DNA of 64,000 bases from an uncultured Methylomirabilota bacterium. Lineage in GTDB: Bacteria > Methylomirabilota > Methylomirabilia > CAVQYV01. Location: NCBI GenBank assembly GCA_963718295.1, contig CAVQYV010000010.1, forward strand, positions 31,679 through 95,678, given 5' to 3'. Under the pieces are notes generated by a model that was given only the letters and a program-made list of their open reading frames with translations, did no database searches and was not told the DNA's origin. Made by a program: the position numbers and the translations under genes. Below are positions 1 to 14,374 of this stretch, one piece after another. Position 1 is the first letter of the stretch; every line of letters begins with the position of its first letter.

Positions 1-1194
1 TCATCCTCTTTGCCCTGGCGCTGGTGGGAGTCGCTTTATTCCACCGACACACCATGTATGTCGCCCTCATAGGGCTCGGCAGCATCCTGGCATTCAAGTT
101 CCTTTTTGTGGGGGGCTTTACTCTATTGGGACACCTCCTGGGACATGGGCAAGAGGAGGGGGAATGGAGGATCTTGCTGAATCTTCTCGGCCTTCTTTTG
201 GGCTTCGCCATCCTGGCCAGGCACTTCGAAGAGTCCAGGCTGCCCGATAATCTGCCCAACTTCCTGCCTGATGGATGGAAAGGCGGGTTCGTTCTCCTCT
301 TAATGATCGCTGTCCTCTCCTCATTCCTTGACAATATCGCTGCTGCCATGATCGGTGGGGCGATTGCCAGGATCGTATTCAAGGGAAAGATTGCATATCG
401 GCTTCCTGGCCGGGATCGTGGCCGCATCCAACGCAGGAGGGTCCGGCAGCGTGGTGGGGGATACAACGACCACCCTCATGTGGATTGATGGTGTGAGTCC
501 GCTGCAGGTCATTCATGCCTTCGTGGCTGCCATCCCGGCGTTGTTCATCTTCGGCATTGTGGCAGCCAAGCAGCAGGACAAGCTGCAGCCGATCGTGGAG
601 ACCAACGTCGATATCAAGGTCGATTACGGTAAACTGTTCATCGTTTTCATGATCCTGGTCGGGGCGATTGCCACCAACTGGCTTCTTGACTTCCCGGCAG
701 CGGGGGTGTGGATTGGTATTATCCTTGGGGCTTTGATCAGGCCGACACCCTGGAAGGAAATGAAAAACGCCTGGATGGGAACGGTCTTCCTGATGTCCCT
801 GGTCACCTGCGCCTCTCTTATGCCGGTAGAGGATTTACCCCCGGCTTCCTGGGTCACCACCTTCGCGCTCGGCTTCGTCTCGGCGGTCTTTGACAATATC
901 CCGTTGACCAAACTCTGCTTGGTGCAGGGCGGCTACGATTGGGGCATGCTGGCTTATACGGTTGGATTCGGTGGTTCCATGATCTGGTTCGGCTCCTCCG
1001 CCGGCGTAGCCCTGTCCAACCAGTATCCTGAAACCCGCTCCGCTGTAGCTTACGTGAAGAGCGGATGGCATGTCGCGGTGGCTTACATCGTGGGTTTCTT
1101 CATTCTTCTCGGCACTCTGGGTTGGTCTCCGGCTCCGAAGAGATCGGATCTGCAAAAATCAGAAATTCCTGTGGTGCAGATGGTTGAAAGGTAA
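1..1194 (+). pseudogene. NhaD/ArsB (ion transporter superfamily) permease, copy 1; 5'-truncated by the window edge, +1 frameshift near 389
   Basis: Motifs LSSFLDNIA, NAGGSGSVVGDTTT, SAVFDNIPL, GGSMIWFGSSAGVAL split over ORFs 24..488 and 355..1194. Reads AAGGGAAAGATTG where the intact copy has AAGGGAAAATTG. May be a sequencing indel. Confidence 0.8.
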
Positions 1195-1206
1195 GCCATC
1201 CACCGA
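1..1206 (+). repeat. Long direct repeat, near-identical to 8954..10157
   Basis: Alignment by eye shows scattered, mostly third-position substitutions. Similarity ends about 12 nt after the stop codon (GCCATCCACCG). Confidence 0.95.
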
Positions 1207-1280
1207 TGCAGAAAGGGCAGATTCTTTTCTAAGACGGCATGTGGATTCTGGAATCTTTTGAATCCTCGTCACCCGAATCA

Positions 1281-1315
1281 AAAGGGCCGGGAGGAATCCC
1301 CGGCCCTTCCTTTTT
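1281..1315. terminator. Probable bidirectional intrinsic terminator
   Basis: AAGGGCCGGG-loop-CCCGGCCCTT with flanking A/T runs, between convergent genes. Confidence 0.7.
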
Positions 1316-1332
1316 GTTTCTTACCGCTCCGG

Positions 1333-1927
1333 TTATTTCTCAATGATCTTGACCTTCATTTCCACCCGTTCATTGGGATTGTCCCGCTTGTCCCGGGGCT
1401 GGCCGACGATCTTATCCACCGCGTCCATCCCGGAGGTTACCTCGCCGAAAACCGTATATTGCTTATCCAGAAAAGGAGAATCGGCCACGCAGATGAAGAA
1501 CTGGGACCCCGCGCTGTCCGGATCCTGGGACCGGGCCATGGATACGATCCCCCGCTTGTGGGATTTGCTGTTGAATTCAGCCTTCACGTTGTAGCCGGGG
1601 CCGCCCATCCCATGCCGGGACTTATCCGTTTCTTTGGTGTTGGGATCGCCGCCCTGAATCATAAACCCGGGAATGACCCGGTGGAAAATAGTCCCGTCGT
1701 AGAATCCTTTTTTGGCCAGGTCGATGAAGTTGTTCACATGGTTCGGGGCCGCTTCGGGAAAGAACTTCAACTCGATTGTCCCGAACTTGGTTTCGATGGC
1801 CGCTTTCGTTTCCGTCATCTTTCTTAATTTCCTCCTTGGTAAAAGTTTTGGACCGCGTCTCTCCCATGGCCAGAACCGGAATCAGACACAAGAGCAGACT
1901 TAAGAAACCTGTTATTACCCTCTTCAT
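1333..1927 (-). CDS. Cyclophilin-type peptidyl-prolyl isomerase; signal peptide disconnected by a probable indel near 1820
   Basis: FHRVIPGFMIQGGDP, SMAR and AGSQFFI motifs in 1333..1818. The ORF from ATG 1927 (with GGAG RBS) encodes a signal peptide MKRVITGFLSLLLCLIPVLAMG...EEIKK that joins MTETK if one base is removed. Confidence 0.85.
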
Positions 1928-2000
1928 AGCTCCTCCTCGAGAAAATGGATCTTTTCAAACATAAGCGTTCATAGTAAGAGGAAGGGCGCTCCCGGTCAAG

Positions 2001-2052
2001 AAAATTGATGGGGAAATTGATGGAGCTGTCCCATTTTTGTCTGTCCCATTTT
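2001..2052. repeat. Stuttered short repeat (family B, GGGAC-type)
   Basis: AAATTGATGG twice and CTGTCCCATTTT twice; same style as 58012, 60292 and 63960. Confidence 0.55.
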
Positions 2053-2056
2053 GGTC

Positions 2057-2085
2057 TTGACTTGTTACGCAAGATTGAATATAAG
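2057..2085 (+). promoter_or_regulatory. Sigma70-type promoter candidate
   Basis: TTGACT-17 nt-TATAAG directly upstream of the tandem RNA element. Confidence 0.5.
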
Positions 2086-2108
2086 AAAGCCAACTTTATG
2101 AGTTTTGG

Positions 2109-2217
2109 AGCTTTCAATAAGGGTAACAGGGTCCGGAGATAGCCAGCTGTCTCCGGAGGGCAATGAGATCGAACGATAGTCGGGCCGCTATCCCTGAAAA
2201 GGGGTAGCGGCTTTTTT
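2109..2217 (+). ncRNA. Riboswitch candidate copy 1 (nhaA-I/Li+-I-like) with overlapping intrinsic terminator
   Basis: 84 nt identical to 2349..2432. Has GGGT...GTCGGGCCGC ends and the hairpin TCCGGAGATAG/CTGTCTCCGGA. Terminator GCCGCTATCCCT-GAAA-AGGGGTAGCGGC-TTTTTT uses the 3' end of the repeat. Confidence 0.65.
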
Positions 2218-2348
2218 GTTTATCGAACAATGCGTTCCTCTGGGAGTAGAGGTTGACTCTCTGCATGGGAAACCAGTGAAGCCAGGTAAAGAGGAGGTGT
2301 AATCCCCCTTTTCTCTTGGAATGGACAAGTCTCGCTAGTTCCTTGATC

Positions 2349-6221: not shown

Positions 6222-8825
6222 ATGAACAGCAATCCCATCAGCCAGGACCCCAAGAACGCGGGCAAGGCCAGGCGAGTGCTGGGCTCCTGGGCCCGTTTCT
6301 CCTATCGCCATCACCGCCTCGTTTTCCTCCTGGTTTTCCTCTCCCTGATCGTCTCCCTCCTGATCGCCAGTCGCCTCCAGATCAAGACCGACATATTTGG
6401 GCTCCTTCCCCAGGACAACGAGAAGGTGAATACCTTCCGCCAGGTCCTTCGGGATTATGGGAGCATGGACTACCTCCTGGTGGCGATCGAGTCGGAGGAG
6501 GGGAGCCCGGCAGATCGATTTGAAGGCTTCTCCGACCTGTTTGCCGAGGAGCTTCGATCCTCCCCCCTCATCGAATATGTGGAATACCGGATCTGGGAGG
6601 AGTCGGAAGATATGCGGCCCCTCCTGGGCAATGGCCTCCTCTACCTGTCTGAGCCCGAGATCGATTCGTTGGCCCATCGGCTCACCGATCAGGGAATTGC
6701 CGAACAGGCACAGCGGATCCAGGCCCTCCTGCTGACTCCAACGGCCCTGCCCATGAAGAGCCTCATAGAGAAGGATCCCTTCAATATCCTTCCCCTGGTC
6801 CAGGATCGCCTGCTCAAACGGGGGATGGATCTGCGCCTCTATCCCTATGATGGATACTACCTCTGCGAGGATCGGTCCATGCTGCTGATGGTTGCCCGTC
6901 CCATCAAGCCGGCGCAGGATCTCCTCTTCAGCAAGAAATTGATGGAGAGGGTGAAGGCGGCGGAGGGAAAAGCCCGCCAGAGGGTGGAGCAGGAGGATGG
7001 CCTCTCCCTGAGCCAGATGAAGGTGAGCTATGGGGGAGGGTATCTGATCGCCCTCAACGATTCCCAGATCATCCAGAGGGATATCCTGCGCAATTTCCTC
7101 ACCTCTTTCTTCGGGGTTCTCTTTCTGTTCCTGCTGGCCTTCCGGACGCTCAAGTCGATCCTGTTTGCGGGCTTGCCTCTGGTGGTGGGCATTTCCTGGA
7201 CCATGGCCTTTGCCGCCGTGGCCGTGGGAGAGCTCAATTACGCCACCAGTGGGTTTTCCGCCCTCCTCATCGGGTTGGCCATCGATCTGAACATCGTCCT
7301 CTACAATCGTTATCTGGAAGAGCGGACGGGAGGCAAAGATGCCCCGTCGTCGGTGGATCTGATGCTCGCTGAAACCGGGCGCTCGGTTTTCATCGGGGCC
7401 ATCACTACGGCCGCCGCCTTCTTTGCCATGATGGTCACCCGGTTTCGCGGTCTGGCCGAATTGGGCCTCCTCACCGGGACCGGGATCCTCTTCTGTCTTT
7501 TGGCCACCTACATCCTGCTCCCCGCCATGTGCGCCTGGGAGGAAAGCCGAAGGAAGGGGGACATCCGATCTCCGCGGATGAGGTCCTTTGGGCTGGGAAG
7601 ATCTTTTGCGGTCCTCTCCCGGGTGCCTCGGGGAATCATCGGGGTCTCCTTGGGGGTGAGCGTCTTCTTGGCCTTCTTTGCCGCCTCCCTCGGCTTCGAT
7701 GAAGACATCAGCAACATCCGTCCCCGGCACAATGAAGCCCTGGATCTCCAGGAGAGGATCTCCGAGAAGTTCGGCCTCTCCTATTATCACTTCGTGGTGA
7801 TCACCGAAAAAAAGACGGTGGAAGAGGCGTTGGAGGCCAATGAAAGGGTGGCTTCGGCTCTGAGATCCTGGAACCGGAAGGAGGGGATCGTCGGGTTCGA
7901 CTCCCTGGAGACCCTTCTTCCCTCGCAAGGCTCCCAGGAGAGGAGGCTGGCCCATATTCGATCCATGCAGGGCCAGGAATTAAACGGAGATCGCATCGCC
8001 AGGAGCTTTCGGAAGGCGTTGCAGGACTCAGGATTGCGACCTGCTGCCTTTGCGGACTACATGAAGAAGTTCCGCGAGTTCCTCTCTCCCTCCCAGAGGA
8101 TCCGCTGGGAGGAGGTGAAGAAATCCTCCCTGGGGCGGATCCTGAGTCGGTACCTGAAGGTGGATGATCAGGGGGTTCGGATAGCCACCTATGTCTATCA
8201 GGAGCGGAGCTCGTGGAAGGCGGGCCCACCTGCCCAGTTGGTGGCAGAGTTGATTTCCCTCGGCTCGGTGAAGGTGTCAGGGGTCAATATCCTCTCCCAG
8301 GAATTGAAGAGCAAGGTGTACCAGGATGCGAAATGGGCTACCCTACTTGCCTTGCTGGGGGTGTGCCTCCTCCTGTATCTGGACTTCAGGAACCTGAAGG
8401 ACACCCTCCTGTCGCTGATTCCCCTCGGTTTTGGTGTCCTCTGGATGTTCGGGCTCATGGATCTCTTCGGAATGAAGCTCAACCTCATGAATATCTTCGC
8501 CGTGATCATGATCCTGGGCATCGGGGTCGATTATGGGGTCCATATCCTGCACCGGTATTATGAGGGAGGAAAATTAGACGCAGCATTGGCCCTCAATCAG
8601 GTAGGAAAAGCGATTTTGATGGCAGCAATGACTACAACCGTCGGCTTCGGCACCATCACCTATTCCGATTATCCCGGCCTCGTCAGCATGGGGATCGCCA
8701 CAGTCATAGGAGTCACAACATGCACAGTCGCCTCTCTTGTTCTCCTCCCGGCGGTCCTCACCCTCTTGGCAAGATCTGGTGATTCCCACTCGGCCGGAGC
8801 ACTCCCCCCAGGTCGAAGATCATAG
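6222..8825 (+). CDS. MMPL/RND-superfamily transporter
   Basis: Two repeats of TM + large loop + 5 TM; GLAID and GIGVDYGVH motifs. Confidence 0.9.
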   Translation: MNSNPISQDPKNAGKARRVLGSWARFSYRHHRLVFLLVFLSLIVSLLIASRLQIKTDIFGLLPQDNEKVNTFRQVLRDYGSMDYLLVAIESEEGSPADRFEGFSDLFAEELRSSPLIEYVEYRIWEESEDMRPLLGNGLLYLSEPEIDSLAHRLTDQGIAEQAQRIQALLLTPTALPMKSLIEKDPFNILPLVQDRLLKRGMDLRLYPYDGYYLCEDRSMLLMVARPIKPAQDLLFSKKLMERVKAAEGKARQRVEQEDGLSLSQMKVSYGGGYLIALNDSQIIQRDILRNFLTSFFGVLFLFLLAFRTLKSILFAGLPLVVGISWTMAFAAVAVGELNYATSGFSALLIGLAIDLNIVLYNRYLEERTGGKDAPSSVDLMLAETGRSVFIGAITTAAAFFAMMVTRFRGLAELGLLTGTGILFCLLATYILLPAMCAWEESRRKGDIRSPRMRSFGLGRSFAVLSRVPRGIIGVSLGVSVFLAFFAASLGFDEDISNIRPRHNEALDLQERISEKFGLSYYHFVVITEKKTVEEALEANERVASALRSWNRKEGIVGFDSLETLLPSQGSQERRLAHIRSMQGQELNGDRIARSFRKALQDSGLRPAAFADYMKKFREFLSPSQRIRWEEVKKSSLGRILSRYLKVDDQGVRIATYVYQERSSWKAGPPAQLVAELISLGSVKVSGVNILSQELKSKVYQDAKWATLLALLGVCLLLYLDFRNLKDTLLSLIPLGFGVLWMFGLMDLFGMKLNLMNIFAVIMILGIGVDYGVHILHRYYEGGKLDAALALNQVGKAILMAAMTTTVGFGTITYSDYPGLVSMGIATVIGVTTCTVASLVLLPAVLTLLARSGDSHSAGALPPGRRS

Positions 8826-8838
8826 GAGGATTACGATT

Positions 8839-10146
8839 TTGTCCCTCAGAATGCTTTTGCTGACAGCCATGCTTTCCCTTCTCCCATCGTTTTGCCTTGC
8901 GGCGGTGGGAATGGTAAATGCTGTTCCGGCCATTTTCGGGATTCGCATCGAGTTCATCCTCTTTGCCCTGACGCTGGTGGGAGTCGCTTTGTTCCACCGA
9001 CACACCATGTATGTCGCCCTCATAGGGCTCGGCAGCATTCTGGCATTCAAGTTCCTTTTTGTGGGGGGCTTTACTCTATTGGGACACCTCCTGGGGCATG
9101 GGCAAGAGGAGGGGGAATGGAGGATCTTGCTGAATCTTCTCGGCCTTCTTTTGGGCTTCGCCATCCTAGCCAGGCACTTCGAAGAGTCCAGGCTGCCCGA
9201 TAACCTGCCCAACTTCCTGCCTGATGGATGGAAAGGCGGGTTCGTACTCCTCTTAATGATCGCTGTCCTCTCCTCATTCCTTGACAATATTGCTGGCGCC
9301 ATGATCGGTGGGACGATTGCCAGGATCGTATTCAAGGGAAAATTGCATATCGGCTTCCTGGCCGGGATCGTGGCCGCATCCAACGCAGGAGGGTCCGGCA
9401 GCGTGGTGGGGGATACAACGACCACCCTCATGTGGATCGATGGTGTGAGTCCGCTGCAGGTCATTCATGCCTTCGTGGCCGCCATCCCGGCGTTGTTCAT
9501 CTTCGGGATTGCGGCAGCCAAGCAGCAGGACAAGCTGCAGCCGATCGTGGAGACCAACGTCGATATCAAGGTCGATTACGGTAAACTGTTCATCGTTTTC
9601 ATGATCCTGGTCGGGGCGATTGCCACCAACTGGCTCCTTGACTTCCCGGCAGCGGGGGTGTGGATTGGTATTATCCTTGGGGCTTTCATCAGGCCGACAC
9701 CCTGGAAGGAAATGAAAAACGCCTGGATGGGAACGGTCTTCCTCATGTCCCTGGTCACCTGCGCCTCTCTTATGCCGGTAGAGGATTTACCCCCGGCTTC
9801 CTGGGTCACTACCTTCGCGCTCGGCTTCGTCTCGGCGGTCTTTGACAATATCCCATTGACCAAACTTTGCTTGGTGCAGGGCGGCTACGATTGGGGCATG
9901 CTCGCTTATACGGTTGGATTCGGTGGTTCCATGATCTGGTTCGGCTCCTCCGCCGGCGTAGCCCTGTCCAACCAGTATCCTGAAACCCGCTCGGCTGTAG
10001 CTTACGTGAAGAGCGGATGGCATGTCGCGGTGGCTTACATCGTGGGTTTCTTCATTCTTCTCGGCACTCTGGGTTGGTCTCCCGCTCCGAAGAGATCGGA
10101 TCTGCAAAAATCAGAAATTCCTGTGGTGCAGATGGTTGAAAGGTGA
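8839..10146 (+). CDS. NhaD/ArsB-type permease, copy 2 (intact)
   Basis: AGGAGGA RBS before TTG 8839; same motifs as copy 1. Confidence 0.85.
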   Translation: MSLRMLLLTAMLSLLPSFCLAAVGMVNAVPAIFGIRIEFILFALTLVGVALFHRHTMYVALIGLGSILAFKFLFVGGFTLLGHLLGHGQEEGEWRILLNLLGLLLGFAILARHFEESRLPDNLPNFLPDGWKGGFVLLLMIAVLSSFLDNIAGAMIGGTIARIVFKGKLHIGFLAGIVAASNAGGSGSVVGDTTTTLMWIDGVSPLQVIHAFVAAIPALFIFGIAAAKQQDKLQPIVETNVDIKVDYGKLFIVFMILVGAIATNWLLDFPAAGVWIGIILGAFIRPTPWKEMKNAWMGTVFLMSLVTCASLMPVEDLPPASWVTTFALGFVSAVFDNIPLTKLCLVQGGYDWGMLAYTVGFGGSMIWFGSSAGVALSNQYPETRSAVAYVKSGWHVAVAYIVGFFILLGTLGWSPAPKRSDLQKSEIPVVQMVER

Positions 10147-10306
10147 GCCATCCACCGTACAAAAGCTGAACTGAGAAGGCCCGGAAAGTGGGGAGAATTT
10201 TGCAGCAAATTGGGGAAAGTTGCCGAAGCACACCGTCCAAGCCCGCCCGATCAAGAAAGCCCGCCTAGAGTCTGCGACAGAATCGGGAAAGACCCTGAAA
10301 TTTCCC

Positions 10307-10355
10307 TTGACAAGGGATGATATCTCAGTTATATTGTTATTAGAATATTCGAATA
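10307..10355 (+). promoter_or_regulatory. Sigma70 promoter with putative ArsR operator
   Basis: TTGACA(10307)-17 nt-TATATT; near-perfect palindrome TATTAGAATATTCGAATA at 10338..10355. Confidence 0.7.
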
Positions 10356-10363
10356 GGCGGATA

Positions 10364-10681
10364 ATGAAGGAAGAGAACTCGTTGAATTTTGAAGAAGAAG
10401 CGGATCTGCTCCGGATGCTGGGCCATCCCACTCGCCTGAAGATCCTGCAGGTCCTGCAGGAAGAGGAGCGGTGCGTAAAGAATATTTGGGAAAGGCTCGG
10501 CCTGAATCAAGCCAATGTCTCTCAACATCTGGCCATGATGAAGCACAAGGGTATTCTGGGCGCGGCCCGGCGGGGAGGAAGAACCTGCTACTTCATCAAA
10601 GACCAGAGGGCTATTGAGGTCTTGAATTGCATCCGAGACCAGATGAGCGACCACGAAGAAAAGAGGGCGCCAGCCTTATAG
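10364..10681 (+). CDS. ArsR/SmtB family transcriptional regulator
   Basis: LGHPTRLKIL...QANVSQHLAMMK wHTH. Confidence 0.9.
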   Translation: MKEENSLNFEEEADLLRMLGHPTRLKILQVLQEEERCVKNIWERLGLNQANVSQHLAMMKHKGILGAARRGGRTCYFIKDQRAIEVLNCIRDQMSDHEEKRAPAL

Positions 10682-10696
10682 ATCGGGAGGAAAGGG

Positions 10697-11245
10697 ATGA
10701 AAAAGGAATTGCGGGAAGGGATCGTTGGACGATGGCTTATCATGCTGGCCCTGATGGCTTGCTTTTCCCTCTGGGCCATACCGGCTGGAGTTTCGAAGAC
10801 GACTGAAGGGGTAAATTGGCACGCCTATGAGGAAGGAGTAAAAAAGGCTCAGGACAGCAATAAGCCTATCGTGTTGCACTTTTATACCGATTGGTGCGGA
10901 TGGTGCAAGAAGATGGACCGCGAGACTTTTGCCAATCCCCGGATTCAGGAGGTTATGAATTTGAATTTCATCCCCATCAAGGTCAACGCCGAATCGAAGG
11001 AAATGATCAAGGTGGATGGGAAAGAGGTCAAAACCTCCGCACTGGCACGCAGTTTGAAAGTGGTGGGCTTCCCCACCACCCTGTTCCTCGAATCGAATGG
11101 AGCCGATATTGGGTCAGTGCCTGGCTATATCGACCAGGACCGGATGCGCAAGATACTGGTCTACGTCCAGGAGAAGGCCTACAAGAAGATGAGTTTTGAC
11201 GAGTTCACCAAACAGCGAATGGAATTTCGGAGTACCGGTCATTAG
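10697..11245 (+). CDS. Exported thioredoxin-fold protein (SoxW/DUF255-like)
   Basis: Signal peptide, WCGWCKKM, GFPT cis-Pro loop, VPGY. Confidence 0.85.
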   Translation: MKKELREGIVGRWLIMLALMACFSLWAIPAGVSKTTEGVNWHAYEEGVKKAQDSNKPIVLHFYTDWCGWCKKMDRETFANPRIQEVMNLNFIPIKVNAESKEMIKVDGKEVKTSALARSLKVVGFPTTLFLESNGADIGSVPGYIDQDRMRKILVYVQEKAYKKMSFDEFTKQRMEFRSTGH

Positions 11246-11259
11246 GAGGAGAAGAGACC

Positions 11260-11475
11260 ATGCCCATCTATGAATATCGGTGTAAGAGGTGTGAGAACTT
11301 GGCCGAGGTATTGCACAGGTCCAGCCGAGAGGAAAAGGCATTGAGTTGCCCCGCTTGTGGGCACGATGAGATGGAGCGCCAATTCTCCTGCTTTTCCAGC
11401 GGCAGGGGCTCGGGGGGAAATGCAGGATCTGAATCCGGATCGTGCAAGCCCTCTTCCGGCTTTCGCTGAGGCTGA
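11260..11475 (+). CDS. FmdB-family zinc-ribbon protein, probable C-terminal selenocysteine (TGA 11467)
   Basis: MPIYEYRCxxC...CPAC; ends SCKPSSGFR-TGA-GGC-TGA, with a hairpin downstream. The family call is firm; Sec is inferred. Confidence 0.8.
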
Positions 11476-11511
11476 TCCGGAGGGGCGGTCGGCCCCACCA
11501 TTTTTCGGATC
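11474..11511 (+). promoter_or_regulatory. SECIS-like hairpin
   Basis: GGGGC-GGTCG-GCCCC, with the G-initiated loop 17 nt after the TGA, inside an outer stem GATCCGGA/TTCGGATC. Confidence 0.6.
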
Positions 11512-11542
11512 CTATCTACACTTCGCATTGAAGGGACCTGGC

Positions 11543-11800
11543 ATGAATCACGCAGCACATCCGATGTTTTCGACTTTGGTTCTGCTCCTATTTCTTTTGG
11601 CCTGGCTTCTGCTCATGGGCTATATCCTCCCCAAGTTGGGGATCCCCACCTGAATTTCCCCCCAATGCCGGGTCGAGGATCGACCCCAGGGGAAAAAAGC
11701 TGATTTCTCTTCTAAAGATCCGAATGCTTCCTCCTCACAAGGGAGCAATGCGCCCACCTTGTCTTCTCCTCCGAAAAAGGAGGGGTCTGGCTCGAGATGA
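11543..11800 (+). CDS. Small single-TM protein, possible selenoprotein (in-frame TGA 11651, U-x4-C)
   Basis: GAAGGGA RBS; TM helix, then ILPKLGIPT-TGA-ISPQC. Frame stays open to 11800; hairpin GGGTCGA-GGA-TCGACCC at 11670..11686. Confidence 0.55.
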
Positions 11801-11883
11801 GCTATCGCAATCCACAAAAAGGGGCCAGGCAAATTTGCCTGGCCCCTTTTCCTTCCCTGAGACCTGCGAGACCCACCAACCAC

Positions 11884-12333
11884 CTACACCCGGCTGAGAC
11901 GCCTCTCGATTTCTGCCCGGGGAATGGTTCCCACCATGCGGTCCACCAATTTCCCCCCCCTGAAGATCAGAAGGGTAGGAATGCTCAAGATTCCATAACT
12001 GGCGGTTACCTCCGGATTATCATCGGTGTTGAGCTTGGCCACCTTTACCCTGCCGGAGTATTTCCTCGCCAATTGGTCAATGGTAGGAGCGACGATCCGG
12101 CACGGTCCGCACCACGGCGCCCAACAATCCACCAACACCGGGATCTGGGATTTGATCACTTCCTTTTCGAAACTGCGATCATCCACTTCGATCGGCTTGC
12201 CGTTGTTGGAATCTCCCAGGAGGAGCGGCCTTCTGCATCTGCCGCAGCGCAGCGTTCCCCCATTCCGTGCCTGAGGGACACGATTGGTTGTCCCGCAACT
12301 TTTACAAATCATATGATCATGTTGTGCGATCAT
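11884..12333 (-). CDS. trxC: Thioredoxin 2 (zinc-finger thioredoxin)
   Basis: N-terminal CxxC...CxxC and WAPWCGPC active site. Confidence 0.9.
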   Translation of the reverse strand: MIAQHDHMICKSCGTTNRVPQARNGGTLRCGRCRRPLLLGDSNNGKPIEVDDRSFEKEVIKSQIPVLVDCWAPWCGPCRIVAPTIDQLARKYSGRVKVAKLNTDDNPEVTASYGILSIPTLLIFRGGKLVDRMVGTIPRAEIERRLSRV

Positions 12334-12382
12334 CCCAACACCTCGCTCTTCAAGCTGACTGATTCAGGCCCCCGGCCTTCTC

Positions 12383-12589
12383 TTACCTTCAGCCAAAGGA
12401 CAGAGAGCATCGATTCTTCCGAAGCAATCTTAGCCAATCGAAATCGACCCTCTCTTGGGCCGGACCTTTCTCCAAAAGCTCCTCGCGGCCACAATGGGGA
12501 CAGCTACCTTGCTCCTTCGTATCTTTCTCCGACTGATAGCGCTCAAAGGAATGAAGACAGGATGGACATTCGTATTCGATCATCGGCAA
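12383..12589 (-). CDS. Second FmdB-like zinc-ribbon protein, possible penultimate Sec (TGA 12391..12389)
   Basis: GGAGGTG RBS, TTG start MPMIEYECPSC...CPHC; ends RCSLSFG-TGA-AGG-TAA, then AGGCC-GGG-GGCCT hairpin. Confidence 0.7.
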
Positions 12590-12794
12590 TGTGGTCACCT
12601 CCCCTCTATCCAATAATGATGCAGGGATGAAAGGGGAGGTTGCAGAGGAAGGACAAAGAAAGAAAAGCCGAGGATGGACAAACAAAGAAGATCCAGCGAG
12701 GGAGGGCGAGTCCACGGAAGGCCAAGTGGCCAGAGGGAATGCATTACTTCCGGGAGGATGAAATCGTACTTCTACACCATTCCCGGAGGGCCCT

Positions 12795-13040
12795 TCAGCC
12801 CGTCTGACCCTTCCACCGGTCTCGCAGAAGGCGCTGAAGGCGATCTTTCACCTCTGGAGGTATCTGGTACTCTTCGGGCAGGTTGTCCTTGAAGAGGGCG
12901 ATCGTCTTGCGGGTACCATCTATCACCACTCGGCAGGGCTCACAGCCCTCCAAGTGTGCCTCGATATCTACGCAGAGGGATTCGTCCAGTTCCCCATCCA
13001 CAAAATCCGACAGGACTTCCAAAAGGTCCTTACAGTGCAC
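12795..13040 (-). CDS. Zinc-binding anti-sigma factor (zf-HC2/ZAS)
   Basis: MHC...LSDFVDGEL...HLEGCEPC; overlaps the sigma gene stop. Confidence 0.9.
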   Translation of the reverse strand: MHCKDLLEVLSDFVDGELDESLCVDIEAHLEGCEPCRVVIDGTRKTIALFKDNLPEEYQIPPEVKDRLQRLLRDRWKGQTG

Positions 13041-13641
13041 CCTTTCCCTCCTTGACCAGGGCTGAGATCTGCTTTCTCAGAAAAAGCCTGGCCCGCATGA
13101 GTCGAGACTTGACTGCGGAGATCGTGAGGCCCATCATCTCCGAAACCGCCTTGTTGGAGAGGCCTTCCACATCCCGCAGGAGGAACACCGCACGATAGAT
13201 CTGGGGGAGGCTGGCAATGGCCCGCTCCAGTATCTCCACCAGCTCCTTCCTCTCCAGGATCTCGGCCGGGTTCACCGACCAATCGGCAATCTCCTGGGGC
13301 AAGGGGACACCATCTTCATTAAAGTGCTGGGGGTTGTCGAGAGAAACCTCATGAATTTTTCCCTCCTTGCGGAACTTCATCAGGGCGAAGTTGGTGGCGA
13401 TACGGGTGATCCAGGTGCGAAAGCTGGCCTCCTCCCGAAACCGGGAGAGGTTCTCGAAGGCACTGAGAAAGGTCTGTTGCAGTAAATCCTCCGCATCCTC
13501 TCGGTTTCCCAAGAGGCGGTAGAGGTACGAGTAGACCCTGCCGCCATGACGGCTCACCAATTCCTCAAAGGCGACGAAGTCGGCACCCTTCGCCAGCGTG
13601 ACGAGCTCTTGATCCGTTCTCTTCTGGCTATCGACGGTCAT
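13030..13641 (-). CDS. ECF sigma-70 factor
   Basis: DAEDLLQQTF...FRTWITRIATN (region 2); AVKSRLMRAR (region 4). Confidence 0.95.
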   Translation of the reverse strand: MTVDSQKRTDQELVTLAKGADFVAFEELVSRHGGRVYSYLYRLLGNREDAEDLLQQTFLSAFENLSRFREEASFRTWITRIATNFALMKFRKEGKIHEVSLDNPQHFNEDGVPLPQEIADWSVNPAEILERKELVEILERAIASLPQIYRAVFLLRDVEGLSNKAVSEMMGLTISAVKSRLMRARLFLRKQISALVKEGKGAL

Positions 13642-13663
13642 CTGATCTTAATCTCCTGGCCTC

Positions 13664-14374
13664 TTAGCGCTTGTAGCCGACGGGGAGAAGACAGATCGGA
13701 TCCTGCCCGACAGAGCACTTGAGGATGGATGCGATCTCTTTGTCTTCAAAAGCCCCCACAATCCCTGCCCCTAAGCCCAGGGCCTCTGCCTGCAACAAGA
13801 TATTTTGGCCTGCATGGCCAACCTCGATGAGAGCATAGCGAATGCCGCGTTCCCCATATTTCCGGGTGATCCTCTGATACTCGGCAGTGATGGCGACAAT
13901 GACAGGGGCATCCACCATCCACATCTGATGCAATGCCTTCTTCGCTATCGATTGACGCTGGTCTCCCCCCACTACCTTAGAGAGGGCATGGGTCTTGGGA
14001 AGATACCGATAGATGCCAGAATCCAGGCCACTCACCCCCTGATCTGCCACCACCGCATACAGGTCCAGGGGGTAGAGACCCCCTCCTGAGGGGGCGGCCC
14101 GCCTCTGAAATCCTCCCCTCTCCGTGACCCCCTGCCCAGCCCAGAGCAACTGGCCCAACTGGCTAAGGGAGAGGGCCTTGCCTTGGAAGTCGCGAATGGT
14201 TCGCCTTTCCCTGATAGCCCCCTCAACCGAGACCTGCCCCTCTTGATTGGGCCTGGGCAGGAGAATCTCCTGGGAGAATGATGTTCCCGAAGCGACCAAG
14301 AGCAGTCCCCCCAAGAGCAAGATGAACAGTAGATGGAGCTTGGACATAGTATTTCGCCGGGCCGCTTCCCTCAT
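13664..14374 (-). CDS. SagB/ThcOx-type nitroreductase family protein with signal peptide
   Basis: RRTIRDF, RAAPSGGGLYP and EVGHAGQNILL motifs. Confidence 0.9.
   Translation of the reverse strand: MREAARRNTMSKLHLLFILLLGGLLLVASGTSFSQEILLPRPNQEGQVSVEGAIRERRTIRDFQGKALSLSQLGQLLWAGQGVTERGGFQRRAAPSGGGLYPLDLYAVVADQGVSGLDSGIYRYLPKTHALSKVVGGDQRQSIAKKALHQMWMVDAPVIVAITAEYQRITRKYGERGIRYALIEVGHAGQNILLQAEALGLGAGIVGAFEDKEIASILKCSVGQDPICLLPVGYKR

Follow-up and report, generated by a model that had tools for sequence, protein, structure and literature searches.

A putative thiol/selenol redox locus of a Methylomirabilota bacterium with three TGA-interrupted mini-genes as candidate selenoprotein genes

Three very small open reading frames (ORFs), lying within about a kilobase in a cluster of redox-related genes, stop at TGA, and the question raised by this locus is whether the TGA codons are ordinary stops or are read as selenocysteine (Sec, U), so that each ORF continues into a short selenoprotein. 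The locus lies in a stretch of 64,000 nucleotides, here called the window, from an uncultured Methylomirabilota bacterium (GenBank assembly GCA_963718295.1, contig CAVQYV010000010.1, positions 31,679 to 95,678 of the forward strand), and occupies positions 10307-13641 of it as two convergent gene runs. The forward run consists of arsR, a thioredoxin-fold gene (trxL), a zinc-ribbon gene (ZnR1) and a gene for a small membrane protein with one helix (TM); the reverse run consists of the genes of an extracytoplasmic function (ECF) sigma factor and a zinc-binding anti-sigma (ZAS) protein, a second zinc-ribbon gene (ZnR2) and trxC. An earlier note on this DNA had described the two runs and had pointed to three small ORFs stopping at TGA near a Cys, each with a G-loop hairpin behind it. 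The gene content was borne out by Pfam and NCBIfam scores, and the three ORFs and their hairpins were found as described. From the sequence comparisons presented here, it is likely that the two convergent operons make up a thiol/selenol redox module, and that selenoproteins are encoded by no fewer than two of the mini-genes and probably by all of them.

The earlier note had proposed to look for the Sec machinery in the genome, and selA (575.4 bits), selB (370.9 bits), selD (396.6 bits) and tRNA-Sec (71.1 bits) were all present, each above its curated cut-off. The selD gene of this genome carries one in-frame TGA itself, and the hairpin read 3' of it has the loop GGUCU, which shares GGUC with the loop GGUCG of the ZnR1 hairpin. 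A TGA alone is uninformative here, because TGA ends 1634 of the 3029 long frames of the genome (57% GC). The hairpins were judged by a fixed rule of our own making, modelled on criteria for the bacterial selenocysteine insertion sequence (SECIS). It asks for a stem of 5 bp or more, including 4 or more GC pairs, and for a loop of 3-7 nt that has G in its first two positions and begins 14-26 nt downstream of the stop. As a background, 71 of the 1634 TGA-ending long frames (4.3%) and 729 of 20000 random TGA trinucleotides satisfied this rule. ZnR1, TM and ZnR2 all satisfy it, the distances from TGA to loop start being 17, 21-23 and 15 nt, respectively, and the ZAS gene, which also ends with TGA, does not. 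The latter was considered as a fourth selenoprotein gene and rejected. It has no hairpin, and in the relative G001, which belongs to another genus of the same family, its TGA is followed by TAG, so read-through is not conserved; the TGA of the ZAS gene is an ordinary stop. The same relative, in which the locus shows ~70-75% nucleotide identity and is split over two contigs, retains the TGAs and hairpins of all three mini-genes at corresponding places.

The TM gene (11543-11800, forward strand; Sec codon 11651-11653, stop 11798-11800) encodes a candidate single-helix membrane selenoprotein with the segment ..LLMGYILPKLGIPT-U-ISPQC... Its 36 codons up to the TGA (..GIPT-TGA-ISPQC..) are followed by 48 open codons, which end just before a terminator-like element between the two runs. 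The SECIS-like hairpin GGGUCGA-GGA-UCGACCC (11670-11686, forward strand), whose loop lies 23 nt past the UGA, has a folding z-score of -2.68, only 3 of 200 shuffles folding as well. In G001, T-TGA-ISPQC(G)VEDRP.. is found with synonymous changes (ATT/ATC, CCC/CCG), and the frame again ends just before a terminator-like element. With the read-through protein as query, a six-frame search of the 251 class genomes led to 30 fetched loci, 28 of which had TGA at one and the same column, together with an open frame and a hairpin; the other two (L067 and L074) were left out as non-members. The internal codon was TGA in 28/28 loci, never TAA or TAG, and the hairpin rule was satisfied in 28/28 loci as compared with the 4.3% of TGA ends in the window genome, even though the stems differ between loci (GGGUC/GACCC, GGACC/GGUCC, GAGGCC/GGCCUC, GCUCC/GGAGC). 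The family consensus reads ..L-N/M-R-W-V-L-P-R-F/L-G-I/V-x-T-U, mostly with a Cys 5-6 residues further on, and L29, P30, G33, T36 and U37 are invariant in the 28 sequences. One subgroup has exactly 20 codons beyond the TGA, followed by TAG or TAA, in all 13 of its members.

When a profile of these 28 sequences was compared with 1.84 billion representative proteins, 1377 matches were obtained at E<=0.001. The TGA column was occupied by Cys in 60 of the 75 sequences fetched from among them (..G-I/V-x-T-C-M-S-G-A-C, i.e. CxxxxC). Six of the remaining 15 end just before the column, and the others have W (four), S (two), G, R or L (one each) there. Selenoprotein families are classically recognized by a TGA at a fixed column, an open frame and a hairpin behind it, and Cys in the same place in homologues. 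The TM family shows all of these, and its mini-gene in the window very probably encodes Sec at the TGA. The expectation of the earlier note that standard annotation would miss such residues was confirmed by public records: a word-based protein search returned 2511 proteins, and stubs of 29 residues made up 84 of the best 120. The records are named 'hypothetical protein' throughout; the only exception is a transporter label that is evidently spurious. Neither the Sec nor the Cys form of the family is matched by a Pfam or NCBIfam model, and in the ESM Atlas the family occurs only as a 'hypothetical protein' cluster without a name (score 0.85), most frequent in Planctomycetota. The records with W (P0011, P0012, P0047, P0048), G (P0032) and R (P0009) at the Sec column are probably cases of TGA called under alternative genetic codes, which would be a second route of mis-annotation. 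Fusions of the CxxxxC module of TM with a WCGPC thioredoxin domain were also seen (P0059; L223, from position 2066 onward).

ZnR1 (11260-11475, forward strand; Sec codon 11467-11469, stop TGA 11473-11475) is an FmdB-type zinc ribbon by both family models (TIGR02605, 57.6 bits at a cut-off of 31.3; Pfam PF09723, 53.9 bits at a cut-off of 34.4). Its DNA tail ..SCKPSSGFR-TGA-GGC-TGA, with one codon between the TGAs, would be read as ..SCKPSSGFR-U-G, that is, C-x7-U-G-stop. Both CxxC motifs of ZnR1, as of ZnR2, consist of Cys codons, and the TGA is situated in the C-terminal tail. The SECIS-like hairpin GGGGC-GGUCG-GCCCC follows at 11482-11496 of the forward strand (outer stem 11474-11511). G001 keeps R-TGA-GGC and has its stop two codons later, and all five close database homologues of ZnR1 end at ..C-K/R-P-S-S/T-G-F-R/C. 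A class-wide search for such ribbons revealed the same signature, i.e. TGA as the first stop, a hairpin and the next stop within 6 codons, in 23 of the 30 best loci. The seven loci lacking it comprise four long acidic FmdB proteins (one of them, L100, from a genome flagged as unpublished) and three proteins with all-Cys tails.

The tails themselves fall into types that follow the genera: ..GGCG-x4-G-F/L-G-U-G-F/V-stop in genus g21, ..GCGCAPSG-U-GTC-N/S-stop in g10, and ..SSCAPSG-U-GSCAN-stop as well as ..GGCAPGG-U-ACA(G)-stop in g4; the tail ..GGGCGTSPTGFR-U-G-TGA of L085 is of the same type as that of the window ZnR1. Synonymous differences are seen among the codons 3' of the TGA, for Gly (GGC/GGG/GGT), Thr (ACC/ACG) and Cys (TGC/TGT), and across six further g4 genomes for Ala (GCA/GCG/GCC/GCT). 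The internal codon was TGA in all 23 hairpin-bearing loci and in 6/6 further g4 loci, and the final stops were TAA, TAG or TGA. The all-Cys relatives (..CCGGGGCGCH) end with TAA, TAG or TGA and have no hairpin, and when they are included, the tails fit C-x4-(U/C)-x-C in an alignment made by eye only. In ZnR1 itself, the single codon past the TGA leaves coding conservation unreadable; taken together, the shared signature and the coding-like variation in the tails of its relatives make Sec a likely reading of the ZnR1 TGA. Two loci of this family may have double-Sec tails: in L102 (genome G023), a second TGA replaces the tail Cys codon of the relatives (..G-U-G-T-TGA-N-TGA), and L093 (genome G037) has two in-frame tail TGAs (..GGG-U-GGCGAGG-U-GCAH-stop).

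ZnR2 (12383-12583, reverse strand; Sec codon 12389-12391, stop TAA 12383-12385) is a more distant member, just over the cut-off of TIGR02605 (32.4 against 31.3 bits) and below that of Pfam (30.4 against 34.4 bits). Its DNA tail ..NRCSLSFG-TGA-AGG-TAA would give ..NRCSLSFG-U-R, with the motif C-x5-U-R, and the hairpin AGGCC-GGG-GGCCU lies at 12366-12378 of the reverse strand. G001 has FG-TGA-AGG-TGA and the hairpin GGGCC-GUA-GGCCC, in which the outer pair A-U is replaced by the compensated pair G-C. Direct evidence is thin, as it comes from two genomes, one codon past the TGA and a 5-bp hairpin. In genus g21, a TrxC homologue (E 1e-37 to 1e-42) is encoded on the same strand 3' of the Sec-type ZnR gene in 4/9 cases, and the ZnR tails ..A/G-F-G-U-A-stop resemble the ..S-F-G-U-R-stop of ZnR2. 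Since both the gene order and the tail type match, the chances of ZnR2 are raised, and on this analysis we lean towards Sec at its TGA as well.

Upstream of arsR, a near-consensus sigma-70-like promoter (TTGACA-17-TATATT, 10307-10335, forward strand) matches 11 of 12 hexamer positions; five promoter-like sites were found where 1.7 were expected from shuffles. The 10-bp palindrome TATTCGAATA (10346-10355, forward strand), read from the sequence just 5' of arsR, is a candidate operator. The product of arsR (10364-10681, forward strand) is a transcription factor of the ArsR/SmtB family (HTH_5, 50.2 bits; NF033788, 75.3 bits at a cut-off of 55) with Cys37, Cys75 and Cys89 and without the CVC arsenite site; only the general family model is reached, and the subtype models BigR (44.2 against 155) and TsoR (43.2 against 115) stay below their equivalog cut-offs. 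TrxL (10697-11245, forward strand; Thioredox_DsbH 65.5 bits, Thioredoxin_2 59.9 bits) has a WCGWC site and a hydrophobic N-terminus and is probably exported or membrane-anchored. A metagenome scan with this thioredoxin-like protein gave 80 loci at 31-43% identity, none of them carrying another gene of the locus. Between the convergent runs lies a palindromic element resembling a bidirectional terminator (11816-11850), recognized by its self-match to the opposite strand, and G001 has an analogous element.

On the reverse strand, TrxC (11884-12333) is a thioredoxin 2 (NF008229, 128.9 bits at a cut-off of 125; Thioredoxin, 100.7 bits) with a zinc finger (CxxC..CxxC) at the N-terminus and the active site WCGPC, its Zn_ribbon_Thio2 score of 25.0 being just under 27.1. 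The ZAS gene (12795-13040) encodes a soluble zf-HC2 protein of the RsrA type (PF13490, 43.9 bits at a cut-off of 22.2) with C3, C23, H29, C33 and C36, in which the H-x3-C-x2-C motif reads HLEGCEPC; the RsrA equivalog model TIGR03988 is not reached (36.6 against 62.5 bits). Its start is overlapped by the gene of the ECF-type sigma factor (13030-13641; Sigma70_r2 71.6, r4_2 62.8 and TIGR02937 106.2 bits). Two genes flank the locus. A nitroreductase-family gene (111.5 bits; 13664-14374, reverse strand), whose product has an N-terminal hydrophobic, signal-like segment, adjoins the sigma gene, and its C-terminus is kept at the corresponding place in G001. A 469-residue membrane protein with multiple helices and no Pfam match at E<=0.001 is encoded just 5' of arsR (8737-10146, forward strand).

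Which genes accompany the Cys forms of TM elsewhere? A scan of one genome per species gave 47 such loci, by record titles from Planctomycetota, Acidobacteriota, 'Deltaproteobacteria'/Myxococcales, Omnitrophota and Nitrospirota. Directly 5' of the Cys-form gene and on the same strand, a close ZAS homologue was found in 18 of the 47 loci and a thioredoxin in seven more; an alignment of 19 ZAS sequences shows C3, H29, C33 and C36 without variation. Homologues of the ECF sigma factor recurred near 10 and of ArsR near 7 of these loci. For the flanking genes, plausible ORFs were chosen by eye, identified ZAS genes and spurious-looking ORFs being left out. Downstream, 28 ORFs were scanned (27 from a set of 44, and one added), and they included DsbD_TM with thioredoxin (6), cytochrome-bd-subunit-I-like proteins (5), pyridine-nucleotide-disulfide oxidoreductases with rhodanese (4), TauE (4), DUF302 (3) and YgaP-like TM domains (3). 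Upstream, 23 ORFs from the 47 loci were scanned; here thioredoxin (8), Usp (4), metallo-beta-lactamase with rhodanese (4) and AcrB-type proteins (3) were encountered. Within the class, the Sec-form TM gene comes after a gene of the two-domain protein disulfide oxidoreductase (PDO)/glutaredoxin-like type, ~220 nt upstream, in 17 loci (L049, L055-L061, L063-L066, L068-L072), and the active site that this gene encodes contains a TGA, ..VTIKVF-T/A-TPT-U-PHCPRAV... The PDO type TIGR02187 is given as a known selenoprotein family in PMC13188914. Two Sec-form TM loci come after an ECF/ZAS pair.

As these genes recur across the class and in other phyla, ArsR, thioredoxin, ZAS, ECF sigma factor and TM can be regarded as a recurring set, and a thiol/selenol redox role is suggested because the Cys forms adjoin RsrA-like ZAS, thioredoxin, DsbD-type and persulfide genes in several phyla. 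The exact arrangement of two operons with two zinc ribbons was found only in the window genome (G000) and G001. Several variants of the set were noted along the way. A tiny one-helix ORF (..WDLVFCGGRRC..) lies just 5' of the Sec-form TM gene in L047, L048 and L062, and in L048 both are preceded by ECF/ZAS. In five Planctomycetota loci, ZAS and ECF sigma factor form one ORF of ~280 residues (L203:4790-5626, L206:4733-5572, L207:4634-5473, L211:2803-3645, L217:4784-5623), which would unite anti-sigma and sigma factor in one polypeptide, and a second, free-standing ZAS gene precedes the small membrane protein in such loci. In L203, the genes of a CVC-type ArsR and of a membrane protein of 380 residues (740-2320, reverse strand) are also divergent from an operon of thioredoxin, ZAS, TM and YgaP-like genes. 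Complex prediction for the L203 ZAS protein with the small membrane protein and Zn gave no answer (score 0.00) and counts neither for nor against binding.

On the basis of sequence and gene context, the following mechanism can be proposed. SelB and tRNA-Sec would read the UGA codons via the hairpins, whose G-containing loops lie 15-23 nt downstream. The TM product would be anchored in the membrane and carry U-x4-C just past its single helix; by the positive-inside rule, its short N-terminus would be outside, and the basic segment R-W-V-L-P-R-F-G, the Sec residue and the charged tail would be cytoplasmic. The ZnR products would be FmdB-type zinc ribbons with flexible tails ending in C-x7-U-G and C-x5-U-R. 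Upon oxidation, Sec and a nearby Cys might close a selenenylsulfide, to be re-reduced by the co-encoded thioredoxins, TrxC in particular, and in relatives by PDO- or DsbD-type proteins. The ZAS/ECF pair could work as a thiol switch of the RsrA/SigR type, and the ArsR-type protein, with three Cys and no CVC, might repress its own operon. A function in thiol/selenol stress with re-reduction by TrxC, as suggested in the earlier note, would be compatible with this context; as for a redox-relay function, we consider the question evenly balanced.

A broader idea, which we regard as doubtful, is that the TM family and the FmdB ribbons with Cys/Sec tails, two huge families, are thioredoxin-coupled redox relays with the (C/U) motif as their working end. 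If so, TM (..P-x-x-G-I/V-x-T-(C/U)-x4-C) would be a bacterial counterpart of SELENOK/SELENOS and would serve as a sensor or a substrate on the inner side of the membrane, with RsrA-like ZAS and Trx/DsbD proteins as its partners. The Sec variants of the class would then mark the catalytic residue of both families: because Sec replaces functionally critical Cys residues, the TGA would pinpoint the residue that is likely active.

Several observations weigh against the reading of the three mini-genes as selenoprotein genes. An Rfam scan of positions 10200-13800 gave one chance-level miRNA match and no SECIS family. The folding z-scores of the ZnR1 (-1.26) and ZnR2 (-0.28) hairpins are unremarkable, and the ZnR1 hairpin with its T-run also fits the terminator consensus (the T-run is absent in G001); the case must therefore rest on comparison across genomes. 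There, a DNA search of 41 genomes recovered the complete locus in G001 alone, and the C-terminal half of ZnR2 was found only in G000 and G001 among the 251 genomes, weak matches to the N-terminal ribbon being obtained elsewhere. A protein word search with ZnR2 returned ZnR2 alone, and no Cys-aligned homologue of it was found in either search. Moreover, the Cys after U is absent in five TM loci (L054, L058, L062, L070, L073) and comes only 16 residues on in L052, so the U/C redox pair is not universal and is not the whole story. The main inference of the earlier note survived the refuting checks that it had set. Cys aligned to the TGA was found for TM and, by eye, for the ZnR tails, but not for ZnR2; hairpins satisfying our rule were kept in place with differing sequence, but without an Rfam match; the full gene order was limited to G001, but its thioredoxin/ZAS/TM core recurs in other phyla. 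Homologues with TAA or TAG at the candidate positions, which would have spoken for plain stops, did not occur (TGA in 28/28 TM, 23/23 and 6/6 ZnR and 2/2 ZnR2 cases), and the Sec reading as such was upheld by conserved TGA, frame and hairpin and by Cys-aligned homologues, thinly in the case of ZnR2. That none of the three is a selenoprotein gene, the TGAs being ordinary stops and the hairpins terminators or attenuators after small genes, would agree with TGA as the majority stop codon, the terminator-like ZnR1 hairpin, the absence of an Rfam SECIS match and the wholly computational nature of the evidence. It is nevertheless extremely improbable in view of the TM frame, which stays open for a fixed length past the TGA, the Cys at the exact TM column in homologues, the synonymous third-position variation past the TGA in ZnR tails, the internal codon, which is TGA without exception as against variable final stops, and the hairpins of relatives, which have no T-runs behind them. 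A tentative alternative of more weight limits the selenoproteins to TM and ZnR1 and takes the ZnR2 TGA as a plain stop, its hairpin being an element of mRNA processing or stability before trxC. The restriction of the ZnR2 tail to two genomes, the single codon past the TGA, which leaves coding conservation unreadable, TGA as the commonest stop of the genome and the 5-bp stem, which folds no better than 68 of 200 shuffles, are all in keeping with this; on the other hand, the hairpin satisfies our rule, which excludes all but 4.3% of TGA ends, G001 retains it with a compensated pair together with AGG and a stop, and the g21 genes have a like ..FG-U-x-stop tail and a like position before a thioredoxin.

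If the Sec reading is accepted, the main functional rival to a thiol/selenol redox role is metal binding: the Sec/Cys motifs would be ligands of a metalloid or soft metal such as As, Hg, Cu or Zn, and the locus would be a metal-handling module under an ArsR-type metalloregulator. The regulator does belong to the ArsR/SmtB family, an ArsR homologue lies near 7/47 Cys-form loci, metals are typically bound by zinc ribbons and by tails rich in Cys/Sec, and in L203 a classical CVC-type ArsR adjoins the 380-residue membrane protein, which is ACR3-like by eye only, with no tool support. In addition, MerT-like and metal-binding families are among the known selenoproteins in Table 1 of PMC13188914. We hold this reading to be unlikely, as the ArsR of the window is without the CVC arsenite site, the commonest neighbours are thioredoxin, RsrA-like ZAS, DsbD-type, rhodanese/persulfide enzymes and TauE rather than metal pumps, and the TM module is found fused to thioredoxin (P0059, L223). 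Another reading regards the ZnR tails as precursor peptides of a selenium-containing product modified in the manner of ribosomally synthesized and post-translationally modified peptides. In favour of this reading, a nitroreductase-family gene adjoins the locus, and the TIGR02605 description reportedly likens FmdB tails to bacteriocin precursors. Some ZnR tails also contain SGUG, the motif given for the 'selenobacteriocin' TIGR04081 (PMC13188914). At E<=10, however, TIGR04081 itself matches neither of the two zinc ribbons, the 8 locus genes and the neighbours scanned include no maturase (radical SAM, cyclodehydratase), and the conserved partner is a thioredoxin, all of which makes such a product very improbable and leaves the thiol/selenol redox module as the preferred interpretation of the locus.

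How does the locus compare with known systems? To our knowledge, the function of the FmdB zinc-ribbon family is still unknown. Sec forms of it have been listed as 'Putative regulatory protein, FmdB family' with the motif CxxU/UxxU (Zhang and Gladyshev 2008, PMC2398784; TIGR02605 'UxxU' in PMC13188914), and this motif presumably lies in the zinc ribbon itself. ZnR1 and ZnR2 share the family with these listed forms and differ in that the ribbon is all-Cys and Sec is placed in the Cys/Gly-rich tail, 1-5 residues from the C-terminus. The FmdB of PMC11227280 is a formylmethanofuran dehydrogenase and is irrelevant to zinc ribbons. The 2026 review PMC13188914 catalogues 119 families of bacterial selenoproteins in its Table 1. 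The candidates described here resemble the entries of that review in the in-frame UGA, the G-loop hairpin 15-23 nt on, the Cys homologues and the full sel machinery, as well as in the U..C motif beside thioredoxin-fold genes. They differ in that TM matches none of the catalogued families by NCBIfam or Pfam and no such protein stands in the table of PMC13188914, and in that the products are micro-proteins of ~50-85 residues.

Among operons, the Tso operon (NF045707, NF045694) is similar in that an ArsR-family regulator heads small selenoproteins and a Trx/DsbD-like module, but its models are far below their cut-offs here (TsoR 43.2 against 115, TsoB 67 against 805). At the thresholds used for the read-through proteins, no match was obtained to the models of TsoA/C/X/Y, UXX-star, the dual-CXXC small protein or selenobacteriocin. 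NF041211 was rejected, as its matches in five genomes lie at other loci, none of them at the zinc-ribbon genes, and its name is of the glutaredoxin type. The YgaP-like TM domain (PF11127/DUF2892), encoded directly after TM in 3 loci, likewise has a C-terminal ..W-I/V-L-x-x-x-G-x-x-x-C after a helix, but it has two helices where TM has one; as for kinship, TM had no Pfam match to PF11127 at E<=1, and hhalign gave a probability of 30.6% over 14 columns; the kinship stands as no more than a lead.

In actinomycetes, SigR, RsrA and thioredoxin form a thiol-oxidative stress circuit. The window locus shares with it an ECF sigma factor, a small soluble ZAS protein (C-x25-H-x3-C-x2-C) and a thioredoxin gene in the operon; unlike that circuit, it has an extra zinc-ribbon gene between ZAS and trxC and fails the RsrA equivalog model, and in other phyla the same type of ZAS is encoded directly 5' of the small membrane protein or occurs as a fusion with the sigma factor. 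The eukaryotic SELENOK and SELENOS have one membrane helix and a disordered, charged Sec tail. The likeness of TM to them, a single helix and then a Sec tail, and of the ZnR tails to their C-terminal motifs of the G-U-G type, is an analogy only, no sequence kinship being claimed, and the Sec of TM, unlike theirs, is directly past the helix and not C-terminal.

Judged by its kind, the case is one of ordinary Sec decoding, as known from bacteria, in proteins of thiol redox chemistry. The TM family was not found described in the literature searched, the 119-family table or the model libraries, although supplementary tables of surveys could list it. If our reading is true, an unnamed micro-protein family joins the bacterial selenoproteome, and dozens of public 29-residue stubs represent a systematic annotation error where a protein of ~50 residues is encoded. 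The linkage of this family to thioredoxin, RsrA-type ZAS, DsbD-type and persulfide genes would offer a route to thiol or persulfide stress sensing, or a relay, at the membrane, and a locus with three Sec micro-proteins would be a natural place for testing the redox-relay idea. Set against the known systems, three things appear to be new: a family of selenoproteins and small proteins without model or name, whose Cys form extends over several phyla; Sec in the tail of FmdB zinc ribbons, a position that is common within one class; and the occurrence of three Sec micro-genes within 1.3 kb beside an RsrA-type switch.

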